From Escherichia coli (GTDB lineage Bacteria; Pseudomonadota; Gammaproteobacteria; Enterobacterales; Enterobacteriaceae), in NCBI RefSeq assembly GCF_044324875.1, contig NZ_CP172185.1: a DNA stretch of 64,000 nucleotides; one strand, 5' to 3'. Below, one piece after another: positions 15,082 to 43,879 of the stretch (position 1 is its first letter; each line of letters begins with the position of its first letter). A model generated the notes under the pieces. The model worked only from the letters and a program-made list of their open reading frames with translations. It did not search any database and was not told the DNA's origin. Position numbers and translations under genes: made by a program.

Positions 15082-15393
<312 letters not shown>

Positions 15394-17026: not shown

Positions 17027-17045
17027 ATCCTCACTTTACAACGGG

Positions 17046-17393: not shown

Positions 17394-18070
17394 CAGTGGC
17401 TGCTCCCTTTTATTTCGCGGATAAGTGTCTGTAATAACGCCGGCGTCAGTTTACCTTTAAGCCTGAGAGTTCCGGCCGGCAGAACCAGCTCACAACACAG
17501 ACTGTCGGACGGTGTATTTATCTGCTCTGGTTCCTGTGCGGGGGCCGGGATTTTATTATCCGGCTCCGGCGTTAACGTCACGGGAAGCAGTGCCGGCATA
17601 TTTTTTCCGGAAGGCAGCAGGCCACCTTTCCGGTATTGATGGCGCCAGTTGAAGAGCAGGTTATCGTTGATTCCGTTTTCCCGGGCGATCTGCGCCACAC
17701 AGGCTCCGGGCTGCAGTGACTGCTCCACTAAGGCGATTTTAAACTCATAAGGGAAGTTGGGCCGCCGGGGACGTTTTTTTACCACGGGGGCTTCGGATAT
17801 AACGGTGCTTTCAGGACGTACGACTGGTACCGTGGAAAATTGTCCGTAAAGGCAGGCATCAAGTTCCTGCTCCGACATGCCTGCGGGCAAAGGCCACGAA
17901 AGGCCAGCTCTCCGAAAGCGCACGAACATACTACAAACTGTTGATTTTGGTACACCCAGGCGACGCCCGGCCACAACCCGGGGTAAATGTTCTTCAAAGT
18001 GAAGACGTAAAGCTTCAGTGATCCAGGTCCGGTGTTTCATACGATAGTGTCCATTAAAAATGATGGACAT
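17393..18070 (-). CDS. tnpA: IS66-family Orf1 (TnpA, HTH)
   Basis: ORF of 225 aa overlapping tnpB by ATGA. The true start may be an internal Met, since IS66 Orf1 is usually shorter. Confidence 0.65.
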   Translation of the reverse strand: MSIIFNGHYRMKHRTWITEALRLHFEEHLPRVVAGRRLGVPKSTVCSMFVRFRRAGLSWPLPAGMSEQELDACLYGQFSTVPVVRPESTVISEAPVVKKRPRRPNFPYEFKIALVEQSLQPGACVAQIARENGINDNLLFNWRHQYRKGGLLPSGKNMPALLPVTLTPEPDNKIPAPAQEPEQINTPSDSLCCELVLPAGTLRLKGKLTPALLQTLIREIKGSSH

Positions 18071-19430: not shown

Positions 19431-21818
19431 TTAATCATTACAGGATAGGTTCATATTCCATTCATAAGCCTCAATGCCGTTAATCAGTAGTTGACGACTT
19501 TCTCCCTGAGGAATTATCACTTTCAATGTTTCCCATGCAGGGCGATAATCTCCATGAGTGTTTATTCTTAACTCAATTGTAGTGGCTGTGCAGTCCAGCT
19601 CCCATTCAAGCCACAGAGCATTACCTTCAGTATATCCCCAAGTTTCGCCATCATCTTCAAACAGAAGTCCGGTGGATTTACCCGTTCCTTTAATTGGGAA
19701 TAATTTCAATTTACGATGATTATCTTCCGCTTCACTCACGTATGTTATACGTTCACTAAGAGGAATACCTGCACCTGCACGTACTAATAATGGTAGTTTT
19801 TCCAGTGGCGCGTCGATTGTTATCCATTGACCACCACAGAACCATTCGCCATTGTAAAAGTCGTACCATCCTGTTTTGTTGTCGGGTAACCATACTCGTC
19901 GTTGTCGTTGCCCTGCTTCCACGACACTTGCAACCAGAATATCGCGTCCCAGCATAAAATCATCACATTCTTCAAATGTCTGAACATCGTGCTCATGATC
20001 AAGGAAGGTTGGACGTAATATTGGCTCATCATCGGCATGTGCCTGCCACAATAATGTATATAAATAAGGCATAAGACGATAACGTAACTCAATTGCACTA
20101 CGAATCGCGGGTGTTACTTCCGGATACATCCATGGTTCATTGACAGTATGATCATCATTCCACGAGTGGATCGTAAATCGGGGGTGCATAACACCGTTCT
20201 GAACCCAACGAACAAATAATTCTGGATCAGGCTTATCACCAGAAAAACCACCGACATCATGACCAATGTTATACAATCCTGAGAGGCTCATTCCCAGCCC
20301 CATGCGGGTGTTGTATCGAAGGGTATCCCAGTTAGTTCGGTTGTCCCCACTCCATGTCTGAACATAACGCTGCAATCCGGCGCATCCAGAGCGGGAAATC
20401 AAATATGGTCGTTTGTTCGGTGCAAATTTTTGCTGTGCTTCCATAGATGCTCTGCACATTAAAAGAGGCATTACTGGCCGAATGTGTTTAATGGCGATTT
20501 CTTTGCCAAAACCATGACAGCGCGCTTCCCCATCCCATACTTCAAACTCATTGTTATCATTCCAGGTGGAATCAATTCCCATTTCAAGTAGTTGTGTGGT
20601 TACACCTTCCTGCCACCATGCGACTGTTTGTGGGTTCGTAAAGTCCAGATGAGAACCCTCATCATCCCAGAAGCTGGAGCGTTCCGGGACGTTGTATTCA
20701 GAGTCACGAATAAAGAGCTCTTGTTCTGCTACTTCGTTATAGCGAGGATGATCCTGCAATAAACATGGTTTTATATTAGCGGCCAGGTGTATCCCTGCAT
20801 TATGAAACTCCTGACTCATCATTTTAGGGTGTGGAACTTTGTCGTAATTCCAGTTGAATACGTAGCGTTTACCATTAATAGAAGTATAACCAGAAGATAG
20901 CTGGAAAGAATCACATGGAATAGCATGTTCCTTACAAAGACGAATAAACTGCATCAATTGATTCTGAGCATCCGGTGCATCTGTATAGTGCATCGTGGAA
21001 CCGCTGTACCCAAGACTCCATTTTGGACCGAAGAGTGTTTTCCCCGTCAAACGAACAAAGGCTTTGGTGATATCAAGTACACATCTGCCAGTGAAAAGAT
21101 AATAATCAATATCTCCCGCCTCAGCCTGCCAACGGCGGTAAGTTGTATGATAATTATCTATTTCATTACCTAAATCCAGCCAACTATTGCTGAGGTTATC
21201 ATAAAATAATCCAAAGCTAATATCGCTACGGTGAGTAATTGTAAATGGAATATGTTTATAAAGAGGGTCTGTACTTACTGCATTATATCCCATTGCGTCC
21301 AGGTTCCGCATTTCATAGCGTTTTCCTGTGCGTTGCAGATCCCCGGATTTATCACCAAGTCCATAAAAACGCTCGTCATTACGTCGACTTTGATAGTGTG
21401 CAACACCATCACCATGAGCGTTTATCAGATAAGCACTGGTAGGGCGATCATTAACAAGTTCCTGCCACTGACCAGCATTATCCTTATAATGCCATTCAAG
21501 CCATAAAGGCTTGTGAATAATTACGCGTAATGAACTGGTCGTGATTGTCAGTAATTCATCATTCTGCTCCATGTTCCAGGTCGGCAGTGAAAAACCGCTA
21601 ATATCTTCGCGATGACGCCCTTCCCACGGGACATCCTTTTCCGGAGCAATGCTCCAGGTTCGGTCCAGCGACAAAACCCCCTTCCGTTTTAATAGAACCC
21701 GGAACATATTTTCTTCGAGTATATACAGGCAAAGAGAATGCTGACCATCAACTAATAGCTCTATATGATGGGCTGACTGATTTTGTAGTTTCCAGTTTTT
21801 TAATGTTTTCATCTCCAC
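19431..21818 (-). CDS. GH31 alpha-glucosidase / alpha-xylosidase-family glycoside hydrolase
   Basis: 795 aa; GH31 catalytic-nucleophile region GIDSTWNDNNEF. Co-oriented with the upstream MFS gene. Possibly aec37 of the selC island of APEC. Confidence 0.8.
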   Translation of the reverse strand: MEMKTLKNWKLQNQSAHHIELLVDGQHSLCLYILEENMFRVLLKRKGVLSLDRTWSIAPEKDVPWEGRHREDISGFSLPTWNMEQNDELLTITTSSLRVIIHKPLWLEWHYKDNAGQWQELVNDRPTSAYLINAHGDGVAHYQSRRNDERFYGLGDKSGDLQRTGKRYEMRNLDAMGYNAVSTDPLYKHIPFTITHRSDISFGLFYDNLSNSWLDLGNEIDNYHTTYRRWQAEAGDIDYYLFTGRCVLDITKAFVRLTGKTLFGPKWSLGYSGSTMHYTDAPDAQNQLMQFIRLCKEHAIPCDSFQLSSGYTSINGKRYVFNWNYDKVPHPKMMSQEFHNAGIHLAANIKPCLLQDHPRYNEVAEQELFIRDSEYNVPERSSFWDDEGSHLDFTNPQTVAWWQEGVTTQLLEMGIDSTWNDNNEFEVWDGEARCHGFGKEIAIKHIRPVMPLLMCRASMEAQQKFAPNKRPYLISRSGCAGLQRYVQTWSGDNRTNWDTLRYNTRMGLGMSLSGLYNIGHDVGGFSGDKPDPELFVRWVQNGVMHPRFTIHSWNDDHTVNEPWMYPEVTPAIRSAIELRYRLMPYLYTLLWQAHADDEPILRPTFLDHEHDVQTFEECDDFMLGRDILVASVVEAGQRQRRVWLPDNKTGWYDFYNGEWFCGGQWITIDAPLEKLPLLVRAGAGIPLSERITYVSEAEDNHRKLKLFPIKGTGKSTGLLFEDDGETWGYTEGNALWLEWELDCTATTIELRINTHGDYRPAWETLKVIIPQGESRQLLINGIEAYEWNMNLSCND

Positions 21819-26311: not shown

Positions 26312-27496
26312 TTAACTTTCCCGGCTGGAGAGTGAATCAATGTAATCAGCGTACCATTGCATCATTTCACGGCGGCCATCGAGATACAGGGCATGATTAT
26401 AGGTACCCCTGATGGAATTTTTATCCACATGAGCTAACTGCATTTCAATCCAGGCGGAATTAAAGCCTTGTTCATGCAGAATTGTACTCATGGTGTGTCT
26501 GAAACCGTGCCCTGTGAGTCTTCCCTTATATCCAAGTAATTCAATTACTTGGTTAATGCTTTCCTTACTAATTGGTTTGCGGGGATCATTTCTACCGATA
26601 AAGACTAGGGGATGATGTTTTGAGATTGGTTCAAGCTGCTTAAATAGCATAATGACCTGCTCAGAGAGCGGCACAATATGAGGTCGCTTCATCTTCATTA
26701 CTTCTGCCGGGATCTCCCACAATTTTGTCTCAAAATCGATATCTTCCCAGCGTGCAAAACGCAGTTCTTGTGTTCGTACGCCGGTTAACATAATGATCTG
26801 AGTAGCTGTCTTAGTGATTATACTTCCGGTATAACCCGCCAGATCGTTGAGGAAGTGGGGAAGTTCATTAGCAGTAAGAAAGGGAAAATGTACTTTTTTC
26901 GGTGTAGCTAAAGCACTGGCAAGATCGGGGGCTGGGTTATAGTCTGCCCGGCCAGTAACAATTGCATAGCGGAACACCTCACCACAGCGCTGGCGGACCT
27001 TGCGCATTTTCTCCAGAGCTCCACGTTTTTCCATTTTACGCAGTGCTTCCAGTAACTCCATTGGTTTGATTTCGGCAATAGGGCGCTTGCCAATGTAGGG
27101 AAAAATGTCTTTTTCAAAGGTATCAATGATTTCATCACGATAGCGTAATGACCACCGATCGGCTTTTGACTGGTGCCATTCGCGAGCAATAGCCTCGAAC
27201 GTATTTTGCAGACTCATTTGCTGCGCGATTTTTTCTTCCTTTTTTGCCTCCCCTGGATCGCCTCCAGCAGCGAGGAGTTTCCTGGCTTCACTGCGTTTCT
27301 CGCGAGCATCGGCTAGCGTTACATCGGGGTATACGCCAATAGAAAGCATCTTTTCTTTACCAGCAAAGCGGTACTTCATGCGCCAGTATTTAGAACCATT
27401 AGTGTTAATCAGTAGATACATACCGCCGCCATCAGCAAGCTTATAGGGTTTGTCTTTGGGTTTTGCGGTTTTCACTTTGATATCGGTTAATGCCAT
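26312..27496 (-). CDS. int: P4-family tyrosine integrase of the selC island
   Basis: 394 aa starting MALTDIKVKTAKPKDKPYKLADGGGMYLLI; the C-terminal catalytic region has the R...HxxR...Y pattern. Located ~300 bp downstream of the tRNA 3' end. Confidence 0.9.
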   Translation of the reverse strand: MALTDIKVKTAKPKDKPYKLADGGGMYLLINTNGSKYWRMKYRFAGKEKMLSIGVYPDVTLADAREKRSEARKLLAAGGDPGEAKKEEKIAQQMSLQNTFEAIAREWHQSKADRWSLRYRDEIIDTFEKDIFPYIGKRPIAEIKPMELLEALRKMEKRGALEKMRKVRQRCGEVFRYAIVTGRADYNPAPDLASALATPKKVHFPFLTANELPHFLNDLAGYTGSIITKTATQIIMLTGVRTQELRFARWEDIDFETKLWEIPAEVMKMKRPHIVPLSEQVIMLFKQLEPISKHHPLVFIGRNDPRKPISKESINQVIELLGYKGRLTGHGFRHTMSTILHEQGFNSAWIEMQLAHVDKNSIRGTYNHALYLDGRREMMQWYADYIDSLSSRES

Positions 27497-27794: not shown

Positions 27795-27889
27795 CTGGCG
27801 GAAGATCACAGGAGTCGAACCTGCCCGGGACCGCTGGCGGCCCCAACTGGATTTGAAGTCCAGCCGCCTCACCGGAGACGACGATCTTC
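27795..27889 (-). tRNA. selC: tRNA-Sec (selC)
   Basis: The reverse complement matches the E. coli selC sequence GGAAGATCGTCGTCTCCGGTGAGGCGGCTGGACTTCAAATCCAGTTGGGGCCGCCAGCGGTCCCGGGCAGGTTCGACTCCTGTGATCTTCCGCCA (95 nt). Confidence 0.95.
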
Positions 27890-28182
27890 CGCGCCTCGAT
27901 TGCTACATGGAGGCGGGGCGCATTATAGCTACTTCCTTGAGTTTCTACATCCCCCAGATCAGTTTTTTCCGCCTAATACACGCAGCGTATTATCACGGAA
28001 GCATTATAATTCATATAAAACCCATATTTTACAATGATATATGAGCGGAATTAACGCTACCACGATCACATAAAACAAGAATCATAAATTAATAACCAGA
28101 TATCGGAATATTCGCTCTCACAGGGATGGTTTACAAAATGCGTTATCGGTCTCAGCACCCCTATAGCATCAAGGAAAAGCAG

Positions 28183-29574: not shown

Positions 29575-31893
29575 ATGAAAATTAGCGACGGAAACTGGTT
29601 GATTCAACCTGGCCTCAATTTGATTCACCCGCTTCAGGTGTTCGAGGTTGAACAGCAGGGTAATGAAATGGTGGTCTATGCTGCCCCTCGTGATGTGCGT
29701 GAACGTACCTGGCAGCTTGATACGCCTTTATTTACGCTGCGCTTTTTCTCCCCACAGGAAGGTATTGTCGGTGTACGGATTGAGCATTTTCAGGGGGCGC
29801 TGAATAACGGTCCTCATTACCCGCTCAATATTTTGCAGGACGTGAAGGTCACAATCGAAAACACAGAACGTTACGCTGAGTTTAAAAGTGGCAACTTAAG
29901 TGCGCGTGTCAGCAAAGGTGAGTTCTGGTCACTGGATTTTCTGCGTAACGGCGAACGTATTACCGGTAGTCAGGTGAAAAATAATGGCTACGTGCAGGAC
30001 ACGAATAATCAACGAAATTATATGTTTGAGCGGCTGGATCTTGGCGTTGGCGAAACAGTTTACGGTCTGGGAGAGCGCTTTACTGCGCTGGTGCGCAATG
30101 GCCAGACGGTAGAGACCTGGAACCGGGACGGCGGCACAAGTACTGAACAGGCGTATAAAAATATCCCGTTCTATATGACTAACCGTGGCTATGGGGTACT
30201 GGTCAATCATCCTCAATGCGTCTCTTTTGAAGTGGGATCGGAGAAAGTCTCCAAAGTGCAGTTCAGCGTTGAGAGTGAATATCTCGAATACTTTGTTATC
30301 GACGGCCCGACGCCGAAAGCGGTACTTGATCGTTATACCCGTTTTACTGGTCGTCCGGCGCTGCCGCCCGCGTGGTCCTTCGGCCTGTGGCTAACCACTT
30401 CATTTACCACCAACTACGACGAAGCGACGGTAAACAGTTTTATCGATGGTATGGCGGAACGCAATCTGCCACTGCATGTTTTCCACTTTGACTGTTTCTG
30501 GATGAAAGCCTTCCAGTGGTGCGATTTTGAGTGGGACCCGCTGACTTTCCCGGACCCGGAAGGGATGATCCGCCGCCTGAAAGCGAAAGGGCTAAAAATC
30601 TGCGTCTGGATTAACCCCTATATCGGGCAAAAATCCCCTGTCTTTAAAGAGTTACAAGAGAAAGGCTATTTACTCAAACGCCCGGACGGTTCGTTATGGC
30701 AGTGGGATAAATGGCAGCCAGGTCTGGCGATTTATGACTTTACCAATCCGGATGCCTGCAAATGGTACGCCGACAAACTGAAAGGTCTGGTCGCGATGGG
30801 CGTTGATTGCTTTAAGACCGACTTTGGCGAACGTATTCCAACCGATGTTCAGTGGTTTGACGGTTCCGATCCGCAGAAAATGCATAACCATTATGCGTAC
30901 ATCTACAACGAACTGGTGTGGAAAGTGCTCAAGGAAACCGTTGGCGAGGAAGAAGCCGTCTTGTTTGCTCGCTCGGCCTCCGTTGGTGCGCAGAAATTCC
31001 CGGTACACTGGGGTGGTGACTGTTACGCTAACTACGAATCAATGGCGGAAAGCCTGCGCGGTGGTTTGTCTATTGGCCTTTCAGGTTTTGGTTTCTGGAG
31101 CCACGATATCGGCGGCTTTGAGAATACCGCGCCGGCGCACGTTTACAAACGCTGGTGCGCGTTTGGTTTGCTCTCCAGCCATAGCCGTTTACACGGCAGC
31201 AAATCTTATCGTGTGCCGTGGGCCTACGATGATGAGTCCTGTGATGTGGTGCGCTTCTTCACGCAACTGAAATGCCGCATGATGCCGTATCTGTATCGTG
31301 AAGCTGCTCGTGCGAACGCGCGGGGTACGCCGATGATGCGGGCCATGATGATGGAGTTTCCGGACGATCCGGCTTGTGATTACCTTGACCGTCAATACAT
31401 GTTAGGCGACAACGTGATGGTTGCGCCTGTGTTCACTGAATCGGGCGATGTGCAGTTCTACTTGCCTGAAGGTCGCTGGACACACCTGTGGCACAACGAT
31501 GAACTCGATGGTAGTCGCTGGCATAAACAGCAGCACAGCTTCCTGAGTCTGCCCGTTTATGTGCGTGATAACACCCTACTGGCGCTGGGCAACAACGAGC
31601 AACGTCCCGATTACGCGTGGCACGAAGGCACGGCATTCCAGCTCTTTAATCTACAAGACGGGCATGAAGCCATCTGTGAAGTGCCCGCTGCTGACGGTTC
31701 CGTTCTTTTCACCCTGAAAGCGGCGCGTACTGGCAACACGATTACTGTGACTGGTGCGGGCGAGGCGAAGAACTGGACACTGTGCTTGCGCAATATTGTG
31801 AAAGTAAATGGTCTGCAAGGTGGTTCGCAGGCTGAAAGTGAGCAGGGACTGGTGGTGACTCCTCAAGGGAATGCGCTGACAATTACGTTGTAA
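29575..31893 (+). CDS. yicI: GH31 alpha-xylosidase
   Basis: 772 aa starting [25 protein letters not shown] with the catalytic region KTDFGE; matches K-12 YicI. Confidence 0.95.
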
Positions 31894-32187
31894 TCTATTG
31901 AAGAATGCCGGATACGAATGGTTTTGTGTCGTATCCGGTAAATAATCTCACATCTGGTAATAAATATTTCTTCCATCGTATTTGCGAGCATGATCACGAT
32001 TATTCATCACGAAAATGTGATCTGTGCCGAAAAATATCTATTAACCGCCCCGTTTTGTTTTATACATGTCCGGACTACGGACAGATTTTAGTATTGTTGT
32101 GAAATTATTCTGCTTTATATTTACCCTCAGAGATGGCAACTGAAGCTCTTCCACATGGGGCTTCTTAATCTGTGATAAGGGTAAAAA

Positions 32188-33741
32188 ATGCAAATGATTA
32201 CCTCGCGACAAAACAGATTATTACGATTCCTTTTACCACGAAGGGAATATACGACTATTGTTACGATTGCCGGCTATTTAAATGTTTCGGAAAAAACCAT
32301 TCAACGTGATTTACGTTTACTTGAGCAATGGCTGGAACAATGGCGAATAACCGTTGAGAAGCGTGCTGGCGCAGGTGTGATGTTAGACTCGAAGAATATT
32401 ACTGATTTGCTGCATCTTGATCATTTGTTGGGAGCAGAATGTGAAGAGATTGATGGTGTAATGAATAATGCCAGGCGCGTTAAAATAGCGTCGCAGTTAT
32501 TAATTGAAACACCGAATGAAACGTCGATCAGTAAATTGTCAGAGCGCTATTTTATCAGTGGAGCCTCTATTGTTAATGACCTGAGAGTGATTGAGTCCTG
32601 GCTTGCGCCGTTGGGGTTATCATTGATCCGCAGCCCAAGTGGTACGCATATTGAAGGTAGTGAAGGGCAAGTCCGACAGGCAATGGCATTACTGATTAAC
32701 GGCATTATTAACCATAATGAGCCGCAAGGTGTCGTGTATTCACGTCTGGATCCCGGAAGTTATAAAGCATTAGTCCATTATTTTGGAGAAGAAGAGGTGT
32801 TATTTGTCCAGTCATTGTTACTGGATATGGAAAATGAATTAAGTTGGTCTTTGGGAGAGCCTTATTACGTTAACATTTTTACTCACATCCTTATTATGAT
32901 GTATCGCAACACGCACGGGAATGCGTTATCCAGAGAAGAAGATCAAACCAGGCAATATGATGAAAATATCTTTAATGTTGCCAGTCAGATGATTCATAAG
33001 ATAGAACAACGAATTGCACATACATTGCCCGATGATGAAGTCTGGTTTATTTATCAATATATCATTTCATCAGGTGTGGCGATTGATGGACAAAAAGATG
33101 TTAGCATTATTTCACATATGCAGGCCAGCAATGAAGCGCGTCTGATTACCTGGCGTTTAATTACGGTATTCAGTGACATCGTGGACTGCGATTTTAGTGA
33201 AGACAGCGCATTATATGATGGCTTGTTGGTTCATATTAAGCCGCTGATTAACCGACTAAATTATCGCATTCATATCCGTAATCCATTGCTGGAAGATATT
33301 AAAGCAGAATTAGCGGATGTCTGGCGGTTGACGCAATATGTGGTGAATCAGGTATTTAAAACCTGGGGTGAGAATGCAGTGAGCGAGGATGAAGTAGGTT
33401 ACCTGACCGTTCATTTTCAGGCTGCGATGGAGCGGCAAATTGCCCGTAAACGTGTATTACTGGTCTGTTCAACCGGAATCGGAACTTCGCATCTACTGAA
33501 AAGCCGTATTCTGCGAGCATTTCCTGAATGGACGATTGTTGATGTTATTTCAGCAGCGAATTTATCACAGGTTTTGCCTGACAATATCGAACTGATTATT
33601 TCGACCATTAATTTGCCTACAGTCACTATGCCGGTCGCTTATGTTACCGCTTTTTTTAATGATGCCGATATTAAGCGAGTCACTGAAATGGTGATTACGG
33701 GAAAATTACATCATGCGACATCTCGGGTCGTTGAAATTTAA
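32188..33741 (+). CDS. PRD-domain transcriptional regulator (MtlR/MgA/BglG-type, HTH + PRDs + EIIB-like domain)
   Basis: 517 aa: N-terminal HTH/Mga-like, central PRD region, C-terminal EIIB(Gat)-like segment (VLLVCSTGIGTSHLLK). First gene of the PTS cluster inserted between yicI and yicH. Confidence 0.8.
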   Translation: MQMITSRQNRLLRFLLPRREYTTIVTIAGYLNVSEKTIQRDLRLLEQWLEQWRITVEKRAGAGVMLDSKNITDLLHLDHLLGAECEEIDGVMNNARRVKIASQLLIETPNETSISKLSERYFISGASIVNDLRVIESWLAPLGLSLIRSPSGTHIEGSEGQVRQAMALLINGIINHNEPQGVVYSRLDPGSYKALVHYFGEEEVLFVQSLLLDMENELSWSLGEPYYVNIFTHILIMMYRNTHGNALSREEDQTRQYDENIFNVASQMIHKIEQRIAHTLPDDEVWFIYQYIISSGVAIDGQKDVSIISHMQASNEARLITWRLITVFSDIVDCDFSEDSALYDGLLVHIKPLINRLNYRIHIRNPLLEDIKAELADVWRLTQYVVNQVFKTWGENAVSEDEVGYLTVHFQAAMERQIARKRVLLVCSTGIGTSHLLKSRILRAFPEWTIVDVISAANLSQVLPDNIELIISTINLPTVTMPVAYVTAFFNDADIKRVTEMVITGKLHHATSRVVEI

Positions 33742-33767
33742 TGTCAGAATTTTATGAGGTATGACGA

Positions 33768-34238
33768 ATGGACATAACAAAAATCCTGAATACGAATCGC
33801 GTTATTTTAGATATGCAAGCGACGAATAAAGCGGAGGCGATTGAAGAATTAACTAATCTTCTCAAAAAAGATGGTGCGATCGATTGTCGGGAAACCTTTA
33901 TTAAAGATGTCTGGCAGCGCGAAGCGGAAGGCTCGACTGGTTTTGAAAATCATATTGCGATCCCGCATGGTAAATCTTCTGCGGTAATTAATACCACGCT
34001 GGCTATCGGGCGTACCCGGCAGGATATTCCCTGGGAAACACTGGATGGCAGTAGCGTACGCTGTATTATTTTATTTGCGGTACGTCTTGAAGATCAAAAT
34101 ACCACTCATATCCGTTTACTTTCCCAGGTCGCGGGCGCGCTTGCAGATGATGACATCATAGCGCAATTGCTGGTTGAGACGAGCCCGCAAAAAATCATTG
34201 ATCTCTTTAGTCAGTATGCACAATCCGATGTCTACTAA
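33768..34238 (+). CDS. PTS EIIA, fructose/mannitol (EIIA-2) family
   Basis: 156 aa with the phosphorylatable His in HIAIPHG. Confidence 0.85.
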   Translation: MDITKILNTNRVILDMQATNKAEAIEELTNLLKKDGAIDCRETFIKDVWQREAEGSTGFENHIAIPHGKSSAVINTTLAIGRTRQDIPWETLDGSSVRCIILFAVRLEDQNTTHIRLLSQVAGALADDDIIAQLLVETSPQKIIDLFSQYAQSDVY

Positions 34239-34255
34239 ATAACAGGGAGTATATC

Positions 34256-34570
34256 ATGAATATTGTCTGTGTTGCCGCCTGCACGGCGGGTATTGCTCAC
34301 ACCTATATTGCTCGTGAAAAGTTAATTAAAGGGGCAAAAGCACTGGGCCACACCATTAAAGTTGAAACCCAGGGAACCATTGGTACAGAAAACGAATTAC
34401 AGGCGGCAGAGATCTCTGCTGCTGACGTCGTGATTCTTGCTGTGGATGTGAAAATAAAAGGAGAAGAACGTTTTACCAATAAACGCATTGTGCGAGTAAA
34501 GACAGAGATCGTCATTAAATCGCCCGTTCAATTTCTTGAAAAGGTCGAAAAATCACTGGGAAATAAATGA
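34256..34570 (+). CDS. PTS EIIB, fructose-type
   Basis: 104 aa; N-terminal MNIVCVAACTAGIAHTY carries the EIIB(Fru) Cys site. Confidence 0.85.
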   Translation: MNIVCVAACTAGIAHTYIAREKLIKGAKALGHTIKVETQGTIGTENELQAAEISAADVVILAVDVKIKGEERFTNKRIVRVKTEIVIKSPVQFLEKVEKSLGNK

Positions 34571-34594
34571 TCCTTATACTGGAGGGATCTTAAT

Positions 34595-35686
34595 ATGAAA
34601 GAAAATGAAATTCCGGTTTCACAGGAAATTAAAAAACATTTATTAACCGGCATCTCGTGGATGATACCCCTTATTGTGGCCGCCGGGATATGTATTGCGT
34701 TGGGGCAAGTTCTTGGCGGTACAGATGTTGGTGAAAAAACAGGAACAATCCCGTGGATGCTTAATCAGATTGGCGGCTGGGGAATGGGGCTGATTGTGCC
34801 GCTGATTAGCGCGGCAATTGCCTATTCTATTGCCGATCGTCCCGGATTTGCCCCGGGCCTGATTGTCGGCTTTCTCTGTGGGCAAATCCATACCGGATTT
34901 ATTGGCGGTATGTTGGGTGGTTTCCTGGTGGGCTACACCATTTTGCTACTTAAACGCTATATTCGCCTGCCGCAGTCGATGCAAGGACTCATGCCAATCA
35001 TGGTGTTGCCGGTATTAAGCACCATTATCGGTGGGCTGTTAATGATGACGCTGATTGGTAAACCCATCGCCTGGTTACAAGAAGCACTGATTCATTTGCT
35101 CGAGTCGATGCAGGGCGGATCGCGCTTCCTGATGGGGGCCATACTTGGCGCGATGGCAACCTTCGATTTCGGTGGTCCGGTCAACAAAACCATGTCGCTG
35201 TTTTCCGATGGCTTGCTGGTCAGTGGCGTCTACGGACCAGAAGCCGTGAAATTTGTCGGCTCAATCATCCCTCCGTTTGGCATCACACTTTCGTTCTTAC
35301 TGACACGCCATAAATACACCCGTGCGGAGCGCGAGGCGCTGAAAGCCGCGTTTCCGATGGGGATCTGCATGATCACTGAAGGAGTCATTCCGATCGCCGC
35401 GCGTGACCTGTTGCGAGTAGTGGGATCTTGTGTGGTGGCATCGGCGGTCGCGGGCGGCTTAATCATGGTGTGGGGCGTGGAGAGTCCGGTTCCACATGGC
35501 GGCATGTTTGTTGTGCCTCTGTTCACCCATCCTCTGCTGTTTTGCCTGGCGCTGGGTATAGGCACGGTGATTTGTGGCGTGATGCTTTCACTCTGGAAGA
35601 AACCGGTAACGGAACGCGACGAAGAGTTTGACGAACTGAGCGATCAAAAGCTGAAAGATGAAGAGATCATTTTCACCCTCGAATAA
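34595..35686 (+). CDS. PTS EIIC, fructose-like permease
   Basis: 363 aa polytopic membrane protein, EIIC(Fru)-like. Confidence 0.85.
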   Translation: MKENEIPVSQEIKKHLLTGISWMIPLIVAAGICIALGQVLGGTDVGEKTGTIPWMLNQIGGWGMGLIVPLISAAIAYSIADRPGFAPGLIVGFLCGQIHTGFIGGMLGGFLVGYTILLLKRYIRLPQSMQGLMPIMVLPVLSTIIGGLLMMTLIGKPIAWLQEALIHLLESMQGGSRFLMGAILGAMATFDFGGPVNKTMSLFSDGLLVSGVYGPEAVKFVGSIIPPFGITLSFLLTRHKYTRAEREALKAAFPMGICMITEGVIPIAARDLLRVVGSCVVASAVAGGLIMVWGVESPVPHGGMFVVPLFTHPLLFCLALGIGTVICGVMLSLWKKPVTERDEEFDELSDQKLKDEEIIFTLE

Positions 35687-35697
35687 CCGGAGGCCCT

Positions 35698-36549
35698 ATG
35701 TTTGCCGATATGAAAAGTATGGTGATGAAAGCCTGGCATGAACATTACGCCTTGCTGGCGATCAACTGTATGAATCTGGAAAGTGCTCGCGCAGCTATCC
35801 GCGTGGCGGAGAAGAATCGCGCTCCGATCATTCTCAATCTCTATCAGGGGCATCTGGCGCATTTTCCTGCACCCGTCGCGGCGGCAGTGGTTAAAACGCT
35901 CGCGGAATCTGCCTCAGTACCGGTCACTCTGGCGCTTGATCATGGCAAAAATCCGGACTGTATTCGTCAGGCGTTTCGTGCTGGTTTCAGCGGATTAATG
36001 ATTGATGCTTCTGCTTTTCCCTTGGAGGAAAACGTGCGCCAGACCAAGGCGGTGGTGGAACTCGCCGCCAGCGCGCAGCTCTGCGTTGAAGGCGAACTGG
36101 GCCATCTGGCAGATGCGCCGCGTTACGACCAGGCCGCCAATGCAGACATGATGACGCAACCCACTGATGTGGAAGCGTTTATCGCGCAGACAGGCATTGA
36201 TCTACTGGCCGTTTCGGTAGGCACGGCGCACGGCATGTACGCGCCTGGTGTTGTACCTGCTATTGATTTTCAGCGTCTGGCGGAGATTTTCCACTGCTCG
36301 AGCGTGCCTCTGGCATTACATGGTTGTAGCGGTACGCCGTTCGATCAGCTCCAGCTCTGTACGACTCTGGGGGTAGCAAAAATCAACGTGGGGGCGGCCA
36401 TTTTTGAACGGGGGAAATCCGCGCTCCTGCATACCCTCTGTCACGATATATCCATTGAACTGGTGGACGCGCTGAAAGCTATGGAACTGGCCTTCGAAGA
36501 AGCGATTACACCGTATTTACAGGCGAGCGGCTCTATCGGCAAAGCCTGA
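35698..36549 (+). CDS. Class II ketose-bisphosphate aldolase (FbaA/GatY/KbaY family)
   Basis: 283 aa; the zinc and catalytic residues are retained (LALDHG, EGELG, GTAHGMY, LHGCSG). Confidence 0.8.
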   Translation: MFADMKSMVMKAWHEHYALLAINCMNLESARAAIRVAEKNRAPIILNLYQGHLAHFPAPVAAAVVKTLAESASVPVTLALDHGKNPDCIRQAFRAGFSGLMIDASAFPLEENVRQTKAVVELAASAQLCVEGELGHLADAPRYDQAANADMMTQPTDVEAFIAQTGIDLLAVSVGTAHGMYAPGVVPAIDFQRLAEIFHCSSVPLALHGCSGTPFDQLQLCTTLGVAKINVGAAIFERGKSALLHTLCHDISIELVDALKAMELAFEEAITPYLQASGSIGKA

Positions 36550-36629
36550 TTCATTTTCTGTCATGGCCTTTATGCCAGTGCAATAACGCACCGGCAGGGC
36601 GGACTACACGCTGAAACTGGAGATTTAAC

Positions 36630-37490
36630 ATGTTAGTTTCGATGAAAGAATTACTGCAACCTACCCGCCAGCACGGCTTTGCCATTGGCGCATTTAATGT
36701 GGCGGATAACTGTTTCCTTCGCGCAGTCGTGGATGAAGCAGAAGCGACAAATACTCCGGCGATTATTGCCATCCATCCCAGCGAACATGATTTTGTGGGC
36801 GATGCCTTTTTCGCTCACGTTCGCGAAATTACCCAGCGTAGTCCGGTCCCGTTTGTACTGCACCTCGATCATGGTGCCTCTGTAGAGCATGTTTTGCGTG
36901 CGATTCGCTGCGGATTTACCTCAGTAATGATCGACGGTTCGCTGCTGCCGTATGAAGAAAACGTGGCGCTGACCGCAGAAGTGGTTCGCCTCGCTCACGC
37001 GGTTGGAGTGTCGGTTGAGGGTGAACTGGGAACCATCGGACAAACAGGAACGTCGGTAGAAGGTGGTGTTTCACAAGTGACCTACACAGATCCGGCGCAG
37101 GCCGCCGATTTTATTGCTCGTACAGGTGCCGACACTCTGGCTGTGGCGATTGGTACAGCGCATGGCATCTATCCAAAAGGGATGCAGCCGAAGCTGCAAA
37201 TGGACATTTTGCGCGACATTGCCGGACGTATTGATATTCCGCTGGTGCTACACGGTGGTTCGGCAAACCCGGACGCGGAGATTGCTGAATCAGTTACGCT
37301 CGGCGTCGGCAAAATCAATATCTCCAGCGATATGAAATACGCCTATTTCCAGAAAGTGCGTGAAATTCTCGCTAAAGAGAGCTGGTGGGACCCGAACGTC
37401 ATCTATCCGGATGCGATTAACGCGGCGCGGGAAGTCATTCGCCACAAAATGAAACTGTTCGGTTCGCTCGGTAAAGCATCACTGTACTAA
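36630..37490 (+). CDS. Class II ketose-bisphosphate aldolase, paralogue of the previous gene
   Basis: 286 aa with LHLDHG, EGELG, GTAHGIY, LHGGSA; closer to tagatose-bisphosphate aldolases. Confidence 0.8.
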   Translation: MLVSMKELLQPTRQHGFAIGAFNVADNCFLRAVVDEAEATNTPAIIAIHPSEHDFVGDAFFAHVREITQRSPVPFVLHLDHGASVEHVLRAIRCGFTSVMIDGSLLPYEENVALTAEVVRLAHAVGVSVEGELGTIGQTGTSVEGGVSQVTYTDPAQAADFIARTGADTLAVAIGTAHGIYPKGMQPKLQMDILRDIAGRIDIPLVLHGGSANPDAEIAESVTLGVGKINISSDMKYAYFQKVREILAKESWWDPNVIYPDAINAAREVIRHKMKLFGSLGKASLY

Positions 37491-37537
37491 GCCAGAAGGG
37501 CGGGGTGACCCGCCTTTTACGCAACAAGGAACGAGAT

Positions 37538-38470
37538 ATGCACTATCTGGGGTTGGATATTGGTGGGACCAAAATCGCCGCCGTCGTCATGGATGCGCAT
37601 GGCTGGGAGATTCGCCGTTACCGCTGCCCGACGCAAAAGTCGACATATCAACAATTTGTCTCATGCGTTGTGGCGTTTATCGAGCAGATTAGGCGGGACG
37701 TTCAACGACCGATGCTGACAGGGATCGCCTTACCCGGCAGTATCTCGCCACTCACTGGCCTGATTAAAAACGCGAATATTCAGGTGATTAACGGTCATGC
37801 GTTACAGGCTGATTTGCAGCAATTGCTTGGGCAACCGGTGGTGATAGCCAATGATGGTAACTGTTTCGCGCTATCAGAAGCTTGCGACGGTGCCGGGCAA
37901 GATTATGACGTGGTATTTGGTATTACGCTTGGTACGGGCTGCGGCGGTGGCATTGCCATCAAGCAACGACCGTTTATAGGGGCCTGGGGAAATGCTGCCG
38001 AATGCGGTCATATCACGTTGCCAGGCTATACGGAGCAGGAAGATGGTCCATCAGTCAGTTGCTATTGCGGCAAACACAACTGCGTGGAGTCGTTTGTTTC
38101 CGGCAGCGGTTTTAGTGAACGCTATCAACAGATGACTGGTAACTTGCTCACTCCTGCGGCGATTGTCACCCTGGCACAACGTGGTGATGCTTGTGCCATG
38201 CAGCAGGTGGCACGTTTTCGCCAACAGCTTGCCCGCACGCTGGCAACCATCGTTAACGTTGTTGACCCTGGCGTGATTGTGATCGGCGGCGGGCTTTCGA
38301 ATGTGGAACTGCTTATCACCGCTCTGAACGCAGAAGTTGCTCCACTGGTTTTCACCGATCAATTCACCACTCCCATTGTAAAAGCACAGCACGGCGACAG
38401 TAGCGGAATGCGTGGCGCTGCCTGGCTTGCTATGCGCAACGGAGAAGCCAATGAAACGTTCACAAATTAA
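37538..38470 (+). CDS. ROK-family sugar kinase
   Basis: Likely start MHYLGLDIGGTKIAAV. Carries the ROK zinc motif CYCGKHNCVE. The ORF extends upstream to 37505. Confidence 0.8.
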   Translation: MHYLGLDIGGTKIAAVVMDAHGWEIRRYRCPTQKSTYQQFVSCVVAFIEQIRRDVQRPMLTGIALPGSISPLTGLIKNANIQVINGHALQADLQQLLGQPVVIANDGNCFALSEACDGAGQDYDVVFGITLGTGCGGGIAIKQRPFIGAWGNAAECGHITLPGYTEQEDGPSVSCYCGKHNCVESFVSGSGFSERYQQMTGNLLTPAAIVTLAQRGDACAMQQVARFRQQLARTLATIVNVVDPGVIVIGGGLSNVELLITALNAEVAPLVFTDQFTTPIVKAQHGDSSGMRGAAWLAMRNGEANETFTN

Positions 38471-39131
38471 TTATGTTATTGATAAAGCACATGCCATTGC
38501 GCAGACCTTCCGCGTTTGTTTGCCAGAGTTCGCCTATTTTACGGTGGATGACTGGCTGCAGCGGGAACGGGATAACTGGCAAGAAGTGGTCGACTTACAG
38601 CTCGGTTGGGATATCACCGATTTTGGTCGTGGTGATTTCAACCAAACGGGACTAACACTGCTAACGATGCGCAACGGCGCGCTGGGGGCGGCGGCATATC
38701 CAAAACCGTATGCTGAGAAAATGTTGCAGATCCAACAAGATCAGCAGACTCCCTGGCATTTTCACACCCACAAAATGGAAGATATCCTCAATCGGGGCGG
38801 TGGAGACTTATGCATGCAGTTGGCCTGGGCCAACGAAGCCAATCTCTGTGATGATCAGCGGGTTATTACCGTGAGTGTTGATGGTCAGCGGCGTGCCGTG
38901 AAACCTGGTGAAACGCTGGTGCTAAAGCCGGGGCAGGGCATTTGCCTGCCGCCGCGTCTGTATCATCGCTTCTGGGCGGAAAAAGCGTTTGTTCTCGGCT
39001 GGGAAATTTCGATGGTAAATGATGACCAACATGATAACCATTTTCTTGAGCCGGGAGGACGTTTTCCGGCGATAGAAGAAGATGAACCGGTGAAATGGTT
39101 ATTGTGTAGTGAGTATGCTGTTTTGCGGTAA
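38451..39131 (+). CDS. Cupin-family sugar isomerase (D-lyxose/D-mannose isomerase-like)
   Basis: Start MKRSQINYVIDKAHAI overlaps the ROK kinase 3' end by 20 bp. Contains the TPWHFHTHKMEDILNRGGGDL cupin metal-binding region. Confidence 0.7.
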   Translation: MKRSQINYVIDKAHAIAQTFRVCLPEFAYFTVDDWLQRERDNWQEVVDLQLGWDITDFGRGDFNQTGLTLLTMRNGALGAAAYPKPYAEKMLQIQQDQQTPWHFHTHKMEDILNRGGGDLCMQLAWANEANLCDDQRVITVSVDGQRRAVKPGETLVLKPGQGICLPPRLYHRFWAEKAFVLGWEISMVNDDQHDNHFLEPGGRFPAIEEDEPVKWLLCSEYAVLR

Positions 39132-39173
39132 TAGCGGGGACGCTAACGTTGATATCCGTTAGCGCCCGCGTAT

Positions 39174-40883
39174 TTACTGCACCGGCTCCGTCGATGTAAC
39201 TTCGCCACTGGAAACGACGCCTGCATTCATGGTTTGAGTCACTTGCTGCTTTGTGGCGTTCATGGCATGCAATTGCCCGCTAACCGTAGGTTTCAGCGGG
39301 ATATTGGCCTGAATATCGCCGCTGGCGGTAAGCTGAATATTGCCGTCGCCAGTCAACGGTAATTCAGGCCATCCCCACTGTTGCAAAATATTCACCGGCA
39401 CACCGCGTCCATTCAGGCTGATATGGGTCTGACGTTGTGGCGTTTGTGAAACACTGGCGGTGGCTTCCAGAATGCCTTTTTCAGTAAATGCACTCAGTTC
39501 GCTGATATTCACCGTGCTGCTGTTGGCGGTCAGCGCCAGCGATGGGCGACGAACATCAACACGATTGAATGTCGCGGCGGCGGCATTCAGATTCGCCGAA
39601 CCACTCCAGACGCCCCATTTATGATCGGTAACCAGCGTCAGGTTGGCACCGTAACCATCGAGCGCGGTGAGCTGCCACGGGAAGTCAGGGTCGATATCAA
39701 TGATCAGATTGCGGCTGGCGCTAAATCTCTTCAGTTGCAGGCTGTTTAACCAGCCGGGTGTCGTTTCCATCCACAACTGTTGCCAGTTTTTCGGCAAGGT
39801 ATATTCCAGCCCGGCAATTGCCGCATCATCAAGGATCAACGTTTTCCCGTCACGCAGCCAGTTCCCTGACGTTCTGACCATGCCCCCTTCCCAGCGGCTG
39901 GTGAACTGGCGCAGCGCTACGCCCTGCGGGGAAAATTCCGCGTTTATAATCGGGTCAAATAAATGCAGCGAACCATAAATGAACTCGCTGGCGTTCATCG
40001 ACAGTTTGCCTTCCTGTGTCTGCCAGTCATCTTTACTGAAGGTCATGTTGCGCAAGCTGAGATCGAGGTCGGTCACCGCCCAGTCCGGACCTTGCAGACG
40101 AGCGTCAATGACTTCCAGGCGACCAATCTGCAACGACGGGACAGAGCGTAATGGCGCAAAGAAATCGGTTAGCGATTTTTCGCTTTGTAGACGGATATCC
40201 GCCATGCGCAGGTTTTCCACTTGCCAGCTGCCGTCAGCGTTACGCTGCGCGTTTCCGGTTAATGTCCCGCGGGCGATGTCGGCACCCAGGTTAGTCAGCG
40301 TAACGCGATCGTTATCAATACTGCCTTCAATCAGTACATTGGTGGCAGGAACATCATTGAGCGAAAGCGATCCGGCACTAAACTGAATCTGCGCCTTCGT
40401 ACCCAGCACTTTACCGGCTTCTGGTGACCACGGAACCACGCCGCCATTTACCCGCTGCGCGCTCAGTTTCCATTCGCTATTCGGGCTATTAAACGCCATC
40501 TCACGCAGTTGCAGACGATCGGCTTTGAACGGTAGCGGCGCGGTCTGGTCGGTGAGATTCAGCGTCCCGTTTTCCAGCAGGATGGTATCGACATGGCGTG
40601 GTTCGGTCAGTTGCCGACTGCTTAGCGCAATGTCGACACTTTTTGCCACCAGGGTCGCGGGCTGGCCATCACGGCCAAACGTGACGTTCTCCAGCACGAT
40701 ATGAGATGGCGCGGAAAAACGGTGATCCATCGCCCCGAAGGCCAGATGATAGTCGCTATTCTCGGAAACCCATGCGCTGATATGTTCTGCTCCCCAGCGG
40801 GTTTGCAGAAGAAAATAGAGGCCAGCGATCACCACTAACAGAGCGATGAAAATGTAGAGAAGCAGCTTCCCAATAAATTTCAT
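39174..40883 (-). CDS. yicH: AsmA-family inner-membrane protein
   Basis: Matches K-12 YicH from MKFIGKLLLYI. The ORF extends 8 codons further upstream. Confidence 0.9.
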   Translation of the reverse strand: MKFIGKLLLYIFIALLVVIAGLYFLLQTRWGAEHISAWVSENSDYHLAFGAMDHRFSAPSHIVLENVTFGRDGQPATLVAKSVDIALSSRQLTEPRHVDTILLENGTLNLTDQTAPLPFKADRLQLREMAFNSPNSEWKLSAQRVNGGVVPWSPEAGKVLGTKAQIQFSAGSLSLNDVPATNVLIEGSIDNDRVTLTNLGADIARGTLTGNAQRNADGSWQVENLRMADIRLQSEKSLTDFFAPLRSVPSLQIGRLEVIDARLQGPDWAVTDLDLSLRNMTFSKDDWQTQEGKLSMNASEFIYGSLHLFDPIINAEFSPQGVALRQFTSRWEGGMVRTSGNWLRDGKTLILDDAAIAGLEYTLPKNWQQLWMETTPGWLNSLQLKRFSASRNLIIDIDPDFPWQLTALDGYGANLTLVTDHKWGVWSGSANLNAAAATFNRVDVRRPSLALTANSSTVNISELSAFTEKGILEATASVSQTPQRQTHISLNGRGVPVNILQQWGWPELPLTGDGNIQLTASGDIQANIPLKPTVSGQLHAMNATKQQVTQTMNAGVVSSGEVTSTEPVQ

Positions 40884-42673: not shown

Positions 42674-43879
42674 ATGTTTCATCTCGATACTTTAGCAACG
42701 CTTGTTGCCGCAACGCTGACGTTGCTGCTCGGGCGTAAGTTGGTCCATTCCGTCTCCTTTTTGAAGAAATACACCATACCGGAACCTGTTGCGGGTGGTT
42801 TGTTGGTGGCGCTGGCGCTACTGGTACTGAAAAAAAGCATGGGCTGGGAAGTCAACTTTGATATGTCCCTGCGCGATCCGTTAATGCTGGCTTTCTTCGC
42901 CACCATTGGCCTGAACGCCAACATTGCCAGTTTGCGTGCCGGTGGGCGTGTGGTTGGCATCTTCTTGATTGTGGTTGTTGGTCTGTTGGTGATGCAAAAT
43001 GCCATTGGCATTGGTATGGCTAGCCTGTTAGGGCTTGATCCGCTGATGGGGCTGTTGGCCGGTTCTATTACGCTTTCCGGCGGTCACGGTACGGGCGCTG
43101 CGTGGAGTAAATTGTTCATTGAACGCTATGGCTTCACCAATGCGACGGAAGTGGCGATGGCCTGTGCGACGTTTGGTCTGGTGCTGGGCGGCTTGATTGG
43201 CGGTCCGGTAGCGCGCTATCTGGTGAAACACTCCACCACGCCGAACGGTATTCCGGATGACCAGGAAGTCCCGACGGCGTTCGAAAAGCCGGATGTGGGC
43301 CGCATGATCACCTCGCTGGTGCTGATTGAAACTATCGCGCTGATTGCTATCTGCCTGACGGTGGGGAAAATTGTTGCGCAACTTTTGGCTGGCACTGCTT
43401 TTGAACTGCCGACCTTCGTCTGTGTACTGTTTGTTGGCGTGATTCTGAGCAACGGTCTGTCAATGATGGGCTTTTACCGCGTCTTTGAGCGTGCGGTATC
43501 CGTGCTGGGTAACGTAAGCCTGTCGTTGTTCCTGGCGATGGCGCTGATGGGGCTGAAACTATGGGAGCTGGCTTCGCTGGCGCTGCCGATGCTGGCGATT
43601 CTGGTGGTACAGACCATCTTCATGGCGTTGTATGCCATCTTCGTTACCTGGCGCATGATGGGCAAAAACTACGATGCGGCGGTGCTGGCTGCGGGTCATT
43701 GTGGTTTTGGCCTCGGTGCAACGCCAACGGCAATCGCCAACATGCAGGCGATCACTGAACGTTTTGGCCCGTCGCACATGGCGTTCCTGGTAGTGCCGAT
43801 GGTCGGTGCGTTCTTTATTGATATCGTTAACGCGCTGGTGATTAAGCTGTATTTAATGTTGCCGATTTTTGCCGGTTAA
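42674..43879 (+). CDS. gltS: Sodium/glutamate symporter
   Basis: 401 aa MFHLDTLATLVAATLTLLLGRK...; matches K-12 GltS. Confidence 0.95.
   Translation: MFHLDTLATLVAATLTLLLGRKLVHSVSFLKKYTIPEPVAGGLLVALALLVLKKSMGWEVNFDMSLRDPLMLAFFATIGLNANIASLRAGGRVVGIFLIVVVGLLVMQNAIGIGMASLLGLDPLMGLLAGSITLSGGHGTGAAWSKLFIERYGFTNATEVAMACATFGLVLGGLIGGPVARYLVKHSTTPNGIPDDQEVPTAFEKPDVGRMITSLVLIETIALIAICLTVGKIVAQLLAGTAFELPTFVCVLFVGVILSNGLSMMGFYRVFERAVSVLGNVSLSLFLAMALMGLKLWELASLALPMLAILVVQTIFMALYAIFVTWRMMGKNYDAAVLAAGHCGFGLGATPTAIANMQAITERFGPSHMAFLVVPMVGAFFIDIVNALVIKLYLMLPIFAG

Follow-up and report, generated by a model that had tools for sequence, protein, structure and literature searches.

The frz operon between yicI and yicH of Escherichia coli: an intact, conserved carbohydrate operon with a six-gene core and a putative operator

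The stretch analyzed in this study, hereafter the window, comprises 64,000 nt of contig NZ_CP172185.1 of Escherichia coli (GCF_044324875.1), in which a block at positions 31894–39173 separates yicI from yicH. This block is almost certainly the frz operon, which belongs to the accessory carbohydrate operons of the E. coli chromosome and was first described in the avian extraintestinal pathogenic E. coli (ExPEC) strain BEN2908. It is an already published operon and not a new one. Taken as a whole, the block is very probably best explained as an intact operon that depends on a phosphotransferase system (PTS) and for which a mechanism can be proposed, and a catabolic role of this PTS-dependent operon toward some carbohydrate is likely. 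Re-examination of the locus leaves its identity unchanged and points to a six-gene core, to ketose 1-phosphates and to a conserved palindrome and promoter. The additions made here are modest: the core and accessory structure, the loss of an arginine in the aldolases, the putative operator and promoter, a copy of the cassette at selC of Salmonella and the prevalence of the operon in E. coli, all of which are testable leads.

In BEN2908 (NZ_LR740776.1), the same eight genes are found in the same order between yicH and yicI. Positions 31894–39173 of the window were colinear with this locus, with a nucleotide identity of 98.3% across 7274 of 7280 bp, and the encoded proteins were 96.5–100% identical. 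The BEN2908 genome paper (2026) names the region GR27, yicH..yicI, 7227 bp, "frz operon" (PMC12928451). Moreover, the frz primers for polymerase chain reaction (PCR), which were printed with an expected amplicon of 843 bp (PMC6238794), matched the window in silico at 32593–32612 (+) and 33416–33435 (-) with 0 mismatches and gave an 843-bp product inside frzR. The window copy differs from the frz operon of BEN2908 (Rouquet et al., 2009, J Bacteriol 191:4427) only as an allelic variant, as the site, the genes and their order are shared, and its allele was nearest (99.7%) to those of strains such as ETEC1738. The first-pass annotation of this DNA, which was made from the sequence alone, had pointed to a "similar frz operon" in ExPEC; at 98.3% nucleotide identity to BEN2908, the block turned out to be frz itself.

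The interval is bounded on the left by yicI (29575–31893, + strand), which encodes a GH31 alpha-xylosidase according to Pfam and the RefSeq annotation of homologous loci, and on the right by yicH (39174–40883, - strand), which was assigned to the AsmA family by Pfam and the RefSeq annotation. The open reading frame (ORF) listing and the Pfam/NCBIfam scans placed eight co-oriented, intact genes between them, all on the + strand (32188–39131). The first gene, frzR (32188–33741), encodes a regulator of 517 aa with HTH_11, Mga, PRD, PRD and EIIB-like domains (Pfam). It is followed by the genes for a fructose-family PTS, which are EIIA (33768–34238; PF00359; TIGR00848, 126.9 bits vs. a cutoff of 103.5), EIIB (34256–34570; PF02302; TIGR00829, 99.4 vs. 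76.85) and EIIC (34595–35686; TIGR01427, 311.7 bits vs. 157.55). Two genes of the class II (Zn) aldolase family come next, aldolase 1 (35698–36549; PF01116, E 1e-74) and aldolase 2 (36630–37490; PF01116, E 8e-91; NF006042/PRK08185 subfamily). The last two genes encode a ROK kinase (37538–38470; PF00480, E 3e-74, 250.6 bits) and a cupin of the D-lyxose/D-mannose isomerase family (38451–39131; PF07385, E 2e-86, 289.6 bits), whose starts at 37538 and 38451 are those given by PGAP. The intergenic gaps ranged from -20 to 80 nt, and a Shine-Dalgarno-like sequence preceded every gene. None of the eight ORFs contained an internal stop. In addition, no mobility ORF was listed within 31894–39173, the repeat search found no meaningful pair of direct or inverted repeats around the block, and an Rfam scan of the block returned no matching element. 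The content and order of the eight genes as given in the first-pass annotation were in agreement with the Pfam and NCBIfam scans and its ORF boundaries were right within a few codons; its statement that no integrase, insertion sequence (IS) or repeats occur at the junctions was borne out by the ORF listing and the repeat search. Overall, what it had observed was confirmed and what it had concluded was partly supported, its guess of the identity being right and its pathway detail weak.

Cassette variants and the proposed pathway

Orthologs of frz aldolase 1 were identified by protein search at 57–86% identity in many Enterobacterales. This result overturned the possibility that aldolase 1 is restricted to Escherichia, which had come from a contig scan with a single close match (Escherichia sp. 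MOD1-EC7003). The regulator, EIIA, EIIB, EIIC and the two aldolases were found in every cassette variant seen and constitute its core. The cassette of Pantoea, which adjoins parC, consists of these six genes only, without ROK and cupin. The cassettes of Gibbsiella, Brenneria and Mangrovibacter contain the core and ROK without the cupin, that of Izhakiella, which is in an unrelated chromosomal context, contains the core and the cupin without ROK, and those of E. coli, Salmonella and Klebsiella contain the core together with both. The Mangrovibacter cassette adjoins yicJI, and the seven-gene frz-like cassette without cupin of Brenneria (4440–10757 of its sequence) is situated between blocks of nitrogenase (nif) genes. 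Given that ROK and cupin are missing singly or together from Pantoea, Gibbsiella, Brenneria, Mangrovibacter and Izhakiella, both are accessory and not obligatory between uptake and cleavage. Similar to the six-gene core, lmo2133–lmo2137 of Listeria monocytogenes comprises two class II aldolases and fructose-like PTS IIC, IIB and IIA, and it has been described as a homolog of ExPEC frz (PMC2996996). Different from frz, no ROK or cupin is listed for lmo2133–lmo2137 and the host is Gram-positive; the likeness is taken from the published description.

The EIIA, EIIB and EIIC of frz all scored above the trusted cutoffs of the TIGRFAM Fru-family models. All NCBIfam equivalog models for FruA, Frv, Frw and MngA were, however, below cutoff for the frz PTS proteins, and EIIC was below every cutoff of the K-12 equivalogs (FruA, FrwC-type and MngA).

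The two aldolases were aligned with GatY, KbaY, YdjI, the FBA of T. aquaticus, 7NCC and the orthologs from Klebsiella and Pantoea. Both keep the zinc residues, of which Asp-His, His and His were invariant (D81, H82, H178 and H208, alignment numbering). The DPR motif, which is kept in GatY, KbaY, T. aquaticus FBA and 7NCC and missing in YdjI, is replaced by DPN in aldolase 2, also in Klebsiella and Pantoea and thus in three genera, and aldolase 1 has no DPR-like motif, likewise in its Klebsiella and Pantoea orthologs. The arginine of this motif was checked to be Arg331 of E. coli FbaA (mature numbering), which reportedly binds the C6 phosphate. Neither frz aldolase reached the NCBIfam equivalog cutoff for FBA or TBA. 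Aldolase 1 was above the cutoff of no NCBIfam model and possesses a YdjI-like ELGH loop, and aldolase 2 was above the cutoffs of two models, NF006042, an uncharacterized subfamily, and the broad TIGR00167. Both enzymes had been called ketose-bisphosphate aldolases in the first-pass annotation, which holds for the PF01116 family and the zinc residues but is at odds with the missing DPR arginine and with the scores below the FBA and TBA cutoffs.

These features suggest that the substrates of the frz aldolases may not be canonical ketose 1,6-bisphosphates. Because neither enzyme has an equivalent of Arg331, substrates whose far end is other than the canonical 6-phosphate, similar to those of YdjI, are favored. 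YdjI (PDB 6OFU) is also a PF01116 protein without the DPR arginine, and its ELGH motif and loop length are as in aldolase 1; it is annotated in RefSeq as an L-glycero-L-galacto-octuluronate-1-phosphate aldolase, i.e., an aldolase for a monophosphate. The identity between YdjI and aldolase 1 is, however, ~31%, and the ydj cluster is not linked to a PTS and has a PfkB-type kinase and dehydrogenases. Several points speak against an unusual aldolase substrate. Aldolase 2 passes the cutoff of TIGR00167, the "ketose-bisphosphate aldolase" subfamily (259.5 vs. 215.6), the loss of one arginine is no proof of lost bisphosphate binding, and our literature search yielded no measured substrate, transport or enzyme activity for frz. 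Non-bisphosphate aldolase chemistry in frz is thus regarded as a possibility with clearly less than an even chance.

The best equivalog model for the ROK protein was the Mak fructokinase (316.9 bits vs. a cutoff of 443), with NagK also near, and the models for Mak, NagK, AlsK and NanK were all below the NCBIfam cutoff. Its Cys-rich zinc motif, the C..CxCGxxxC region, aligns with that of NagK, and its nearest relatives, Mak, NagK and PDB 2AP1, are free-sugar kinases. The cupin matched z5688, the D-lyxose/D-mannose isomerase of O157:H7 (PDB 3KMH/3MPB), with an E of 6e-65 and ~55% identity by alignment count. Both belong to PF07385 and the metal motif HxH..E..H is intact in the alignment to 3KMH, but the z5688 locus is different from that of the frz cupin, which also scored below the cutoff of the NCBIfam equivalog NF051472 (271.1 vs. 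350). Enzymes of the lyxose isomerase family interconvert lyxo, manno and talo aldoses with 3S ketoses, and the 3S stereochemistry is that made by PF01116 aldolases.

Based on these gene families, we propose that the fructose-family EIIABC would import and phosphorylate a sugar, with a 3S ketose or one of its close derivatives as the most likely candidate, and that the two zinc-dependent enzymes of the aldolase family would split the sugar phosphate into dihydroxyacetone phosphate (DHAP) and an aldehyde. Before this cleavage, a phosphorylation by a housekeeping kinase is possible, for which the gat and aga pathways with their borrowed PfkA are a precedent. Similar to frz, the gat and aga pathways (GatY/GatZ and KbaY/KbaZ) combine a PTS with a PF01116 aldolase that acts with a second protein and have no dedicated kinase in the operon, and the zinc ligands are common to both. 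Different from frz, their PTSs are of the galactitol or mannose family, the partners GatZ and KbaZ belong to a different family, and the DPR arginine is present in GatY and KbaY, whose cutoffs were far above the scores of the frz aldolases. ROK and cupin would form a side branch, in which a free lyxo or manno aldose is converted to the ketose and a free sugar is phosphorylated. In its most specific form, the proposal is that the core encodes a two-step route, new to the literature, in which a ketose 1-phosphate made by the PTS or a similar non-bisphosphate sugar phosphate is cleaved directly to DHAP and an aldehyde with no second phosphorylation, and that ROK and cupin are a salvage branch for the matching free aldose. 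We put this forward tentatively, as one candidate that is rather unlikely to be right. If true, it would establish PTS-linked monophosphate aldolases as a new class, common to ExPEC, many other Enterobacterales and Listeria (lmo2133–2137).

The first-pass annotation had instead proposed a bisphosphate pathway, in which the ketose 1-phosphate delivered by the PTS receives its second phosphate from ROK, the resulting ketose 1,6-bisphosphate is cleaved by the aldolases to triose phosphates and the cupin supplies the ketose from an aldose. In its favor are the presence of intact genes for all four enzyme classes, the fact that ROK kinases typically phosphorylate hexoses at position 6, the TIGR00167 score of aldolase 2 above the cutoff and the retention of ROK in most variants (E. 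coli, Salmonella, Klebsiella, Gibbsiella, Brenneria and Mangrovibacter). The step by ROK was not supported, however: its nearest relatives (Mak, NagK and 2AP1) phosphorylate free sugars, and no ROK kinase is known to use a sugar phosphate. Moreover, Pantoea and Izhakiella keep both aldolases without ROK, and the Arg331-equivalent residue is missing from both aldolases. The bisphosphate pathway is therefore considered unlikely, and a side branch fits ROK and cupin better than a second phosphorylation. Our results agree with the statement of the first-pass annotation that the substrate is not deducible from the sequence, and no substrate of frz or of Listeria lmo2133–2137 was named in the papers that our literature search found. 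The frz operon serves as a marker of ExPEC and avian pathogenic E. coli, and 17 years after its description the literature found names no sugar for it.

FrzR and its upstream region

FrzR contains neither a CAT RNA-binding domain nor a C-terminal EIIA domain in Pfam, and a separate EIIA gene is next to it. Its relatives in PDB were AtxA, AcpB and the PRDs of LicT. Different from the antiterminators of the BglG/LicT type, for which a CAT domain and a RAT/terminator target are diagnostic, FrzR has HTH_11 and Mga domains instead. Its RefSeq name, "BglG family antiterminator," is misleading, given that the CAT domain is missing. The regulators MtlR, LicR and ManR as well as Mga, AtxA and AcpB have an N-terminal HTH with Mga, two PRDs and an EIIB-like domain in common with FrzR, which we take to be a PTS-controlled activator of the MtlR/LicR/ManR type.

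The upstream regions of frzR from nine genera were aligned for phylogenetic footprinting. A putative CRP-like site was found at 31983–31998 (+ strand), with the sequence TGCGA-N6-TCACG in the window and TGAGA-N6-TCAC[A/G] in most other genera. A TGTGA motif at 32016–32020 (+), whose columns were invariant across the nine genera, is a possible second CRP half-site. Further downstream, at 32067–32083 (+), is the palindrome TGTCC-N7-GGACA, whose arms were invariant and whose spacer was free (N7–9) in the nine genera, and which occurred only once within the window. The fourth conserved feature combined TTTAGTATTG with a downstream TTGTTG, similar to a -35 element, and an invariant TATATT, similar to a -10 element. 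The latter two elements, separated by a 16-nt spacer, constitute a putative sigma-70 promoter at 32094–32121 (+), of which the -10 was invariant across genera. A consensus promoter scan missed this conserved promoter and returned fewer sites than in shuffles.

The palindrome at 32067–32083 is a putative FrzR operator. FrzR would be a DNA-binding activator of the Mga/PRD type that binds TGTCC-N7-GGACA immediately before the promoter; its activity may be toggled when the PTS phosphorylates its PRD and EIIB-like domains, and the CRP-like site may add catabolite control. Two points count against an operator at this position: the palindrome was flagged by the scan as a weak terminator-like hairpin, and it could instead lie in a leader RNA. 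A hairpin at 32067–32083 as an antiterminator target was also considered and judged less likely, as FrzR has no CAT domain and the T-run was not conserved.

A different view of the operon is that frz is mainly a sensory or regulatory PTS, which signals to loci such as the fim switch and for which carbon yield is secondary. Review passages on the work of Rouquet et al. (2009) report that frz helps the cells to survive late stationary phase when oxygen is restricted and promotes growth in serum and the gut. According to the same passages, frz biases the fimS switch to ON, deletion of frz turns it to OFF with fewer type 1 fimbriae, and the deletion reduces stress fitness in LB and serum, with no defined sugar given in these accounts. 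These fimbrial and stress phenotypes, together with the relationship of FrzR to the virulence regulators Mga, AtxA and AcpB, are in line with signaling. However, purifying selection on the five metabolic or transport-coupled genes was as strong as that on frzR, the FrzR-type palindrome was found once in the window, at the promoter of frz itself, and the core cassette is also present in Pantoea and Brenneria. These two genera are plant-associated and, to our knowledge, no connection to a fim switch is known for either. A mainly regulatory frz is thus improbable, and a catabolic operon is preferred.

Occurrence, age and polarity of the cassette

The frz segment was present in 1602 of 5426 complete E. 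coli genomes (about 30%), always on the chromosome and in single copy, and the six listed carriers aligned across the entire 9-kb query, flanks included. The K-12-type empty junction was found as one contiguous match in 3814 of the 5426 genomes (about 70%). Given that 1602 genomes are occupied and 3814 have one common empty junction, the yicI/yicH site is essentially biallelic in E. coli. A search with the ROK-cupin segment gave 1605 carriers, of which only 3 had less than 80% of the segment. No second copy of the frz genes (e.g., the z5688 cluster) was found in any E. coli genome by distant blastn; the z5688 paralog is too diverged for a DNA search.

In K-12 (a DH1 derivative), the spacer between yicI and yicH is 52 bp, so that the two genes are adjacent, as the first-pass annotation had supposed, and the empty junction is confirmed. 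When carriers were compared with the K-12 junction by megablast, the homology ended at base 24 of the spacer and restarted at the yicH stop. A hairpin 3' of yicI (31907–31938, +) is present in both frz+ and frz- alleles, with the indel beginning just 3' of it, and a compensatory change from A-T to G-C has occurred in its stem between the two alleles. The stems are GCCGGATACG/CGTATCCGG vs. GCCGGGTACG/CGTACCCGG, and the loop is also different (window 31907–31938 vs. K-12 locus 2411–2436). At the other end, the stop codons of the cupin gene and yicH are separated by a GC-rich inverted repeat (39134–39169, not assigned to either strand). It forms a hairpin that probably acts as a terminator in both directions and marks the right end of the indel. 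In K-12, the 11 nt left of the yicH stop matched neither end of the 7.2-kb segment, and the junction sequence gave no polarity.

The ratio of nonsynonymous to synonymous substitution rates (dN/dS) was 0.00–0.14 for every frz gene against the orthologs from Escherichia sp., Salmonella and Klebsiella. The frz unit is old, functionally constrained and under purifying selection. The first-pass annotation had described all eight genes as intact, and neither internal stops nor these ratios gave any sign of inactivating mutations. The alternative that frz is a remnant in decay, or cryptic, and at present serves no function starts from the observation that K-12 and ~70% of genomes do without frz and from the lack of a known substrate. 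This alternative is, however, effectively refuted by the dN/dS of at most 0.14 in the deep comparisons, and its chance is close to nil: the eight ORFs are intact with ribosome-binding sites, truncation of the ROK-cupin segment was confined to the 3 carriers among 1605, and the upstream regulatory motifs are kept in nine genera.

The synonymous divergence (dS) of the E. coli frz genes from their Salmonella and Klebsiella orthologs was saturated (1.1–2.3), as for yicI and yicH, so that no recent transfer between these genera took place. The nucleotide divergence of frz among E. coli lineages was ~2%, similar to that of the flanks, and its divergence from cryptic-clade Escherichia was about 5–8%, above that of the flanks. 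The yicI/yicH interval is also occupied in the cryptic-clade Escherichia sp. MOD1-EC7003 and in Klebsiella aerogenes. In MOD1-EC7003, the best tblastn segment for yicI (2540–4856) spans 640 of 772 residues, and yicI is possibly disrupted there because of this partial coverage. The order in K. aerogenes is yicJ-yicI-frz-rpiR-GH4-EIICB-yicH, in which the stretch from frz to yicH (13503–17671) additionally encodes an RpiR/SIS regulator, a GH4 phospho-glycosidase and an EIICB of the glucose family. With these extra sugar genes, the yicI/yicH interval gathers sugar operons in more than one genus.

Comparison of the window with BEN2908 revealed a mosaic of dS values, which were about 0.01 in EIIC, aldolase 2 and ROK, 0.03 in aldolase 1, 0.07–0.18 in frzR, EIIA and EIIB, and about 0.1 in the flanks. 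This mosaic suggests that distant E. coli lineages may have a recombination tract in common, and it fits the exchange of an old cassette by homologous recombination in the conserved flanks. Moreover, the flanks of the window, compared over 29575–31893 (yicI) and 42674–43879 (gltS), were 99.0% (yicI) and 98.6% (gltS) identical to those of frz- O157:H7 and 97.3% and 96.1% identical to those of frz+ B2-type strains. As the flanks are nearer to those of frz- O157:H7 than to those of the frz+ B2-type strains, the presence of frz does not simply track the ancestry of the flanks. We read frz as an old cassette that persists in the form of a presence/absence polymorphism close to the selC hotspot. It would have spread and been lost via homologous recombination in the conserved flanks and not via a site-specific mobile element.

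The cassette is also present in several serovars of Salmonella enterica. In the interval 5200–14160 of the Salmonella Ituri sequence, a full eight-gene frz is located on the island side of tRNA-Sec (13774–13868), directly behind a 55-aa fragment of an Arm-DNA-binding integrase and downstream of transposase fragments, and yicI and yicH are adjacent with a spacer similar to repetitive extragenic palindromic (REP) elements. This copy in a selC island beside integrase and transposase remnants is in favor of the opposite reading, in which frz is a horizontally acquired pathogenicity or fitness island that was recently inserted into an ancestral K-12-like yicI/yicH site. Such an island would also account for the patchy distribution in Enterobacterales with differing contexts (parC-adjacent in Pantoea, within a nif cluster in Brenneria), for the low GC content at third codon positions (GC3) of the first three frz genes and for the selC hotspot, which is ~4 kb off in the window. 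However, no integrase, IS, tRNA or repeat was found at the E. coli junctions, and the hallmarks of an integrase-mobilized island, i.e., an integrase, a tRNA target and flanking direct repeats, were all missing there. The divergence of ~2% among E. coli and of about 5–8% to the cryptic clade equals or exceeds that of the flanks, the dS to the Salmonella and Klebsiella orthologs is saturated, the interval of K. aerogenes is likewise occupied, and the Mangrovibacter cassette adjoins yicJI. A recent island is therefore improbable.

For the old cassette, ancestral presence of frz with later loss in K-12-like lineages is slightly favored. The GC3 of frzR, EIIA and EIIB (0.38–0.42 vs. 0.57–0.65 in the flanks) weighs against it, as these low values argue that the genes once came from elsewhere. 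Loss from K-12-like lineages is no less likely than gain, and the term "insertion" is not to be preferred. Of the claim in the first-pass annotation that the block had been inserted, its presence in the gap was upheld and the polarity as a gain was not, given the occupied intervals of K. aerogenes and the cryptic clade and a dS equal to that of the flanks. The results caution against naming frz an insertion; it behaves as an old recombining presence/absence polymorphism beside the selC hotspot.

The neighboring selC island

Although no mobility gene flanks frz, its neighborhood is a classic island hotspot. The tRNA-Sec gene (selC; 27796–27890, - strand), which was identified by ARAGORN and serves as a hotspot of island integration, and a P4-type tyrosine integrase gene (26312–27496, - strand; Arm-DNA-bind_3, Phage_int_M and Phage_integrase in Pfam) lie ~4.4 kb upstream of frz, beyond yicJI, and belong to a separate island. 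This selC-associated island occupies positions 1–27890 of the window and contains a TPR-like ORF, genes for a LacI regulator and an MFS transporter, and IS1, IS3 and IS66 transposase genes. It also carries a second GH31 glycosidase at 19431–21818 and a fos-like locus.

The fos-like locus includes genes for a LacI regulator (5906–6901), a LacY-type transporter (7142–8380) and a PfkB kinase (13839–14801) as well as two GH32 genes (8400–9833 and 11206–12699). The island and its fos-like locus resemble the AGI-3 island and the fos locus described for BEN2908. FosX and FosY are called proteins of "unknown function" in the literature, and the two ORFs at their positions in the window (9926–11191 and 12712–13725) matched the OmpG-porin family (PF16946) with an E of about 1e-129.

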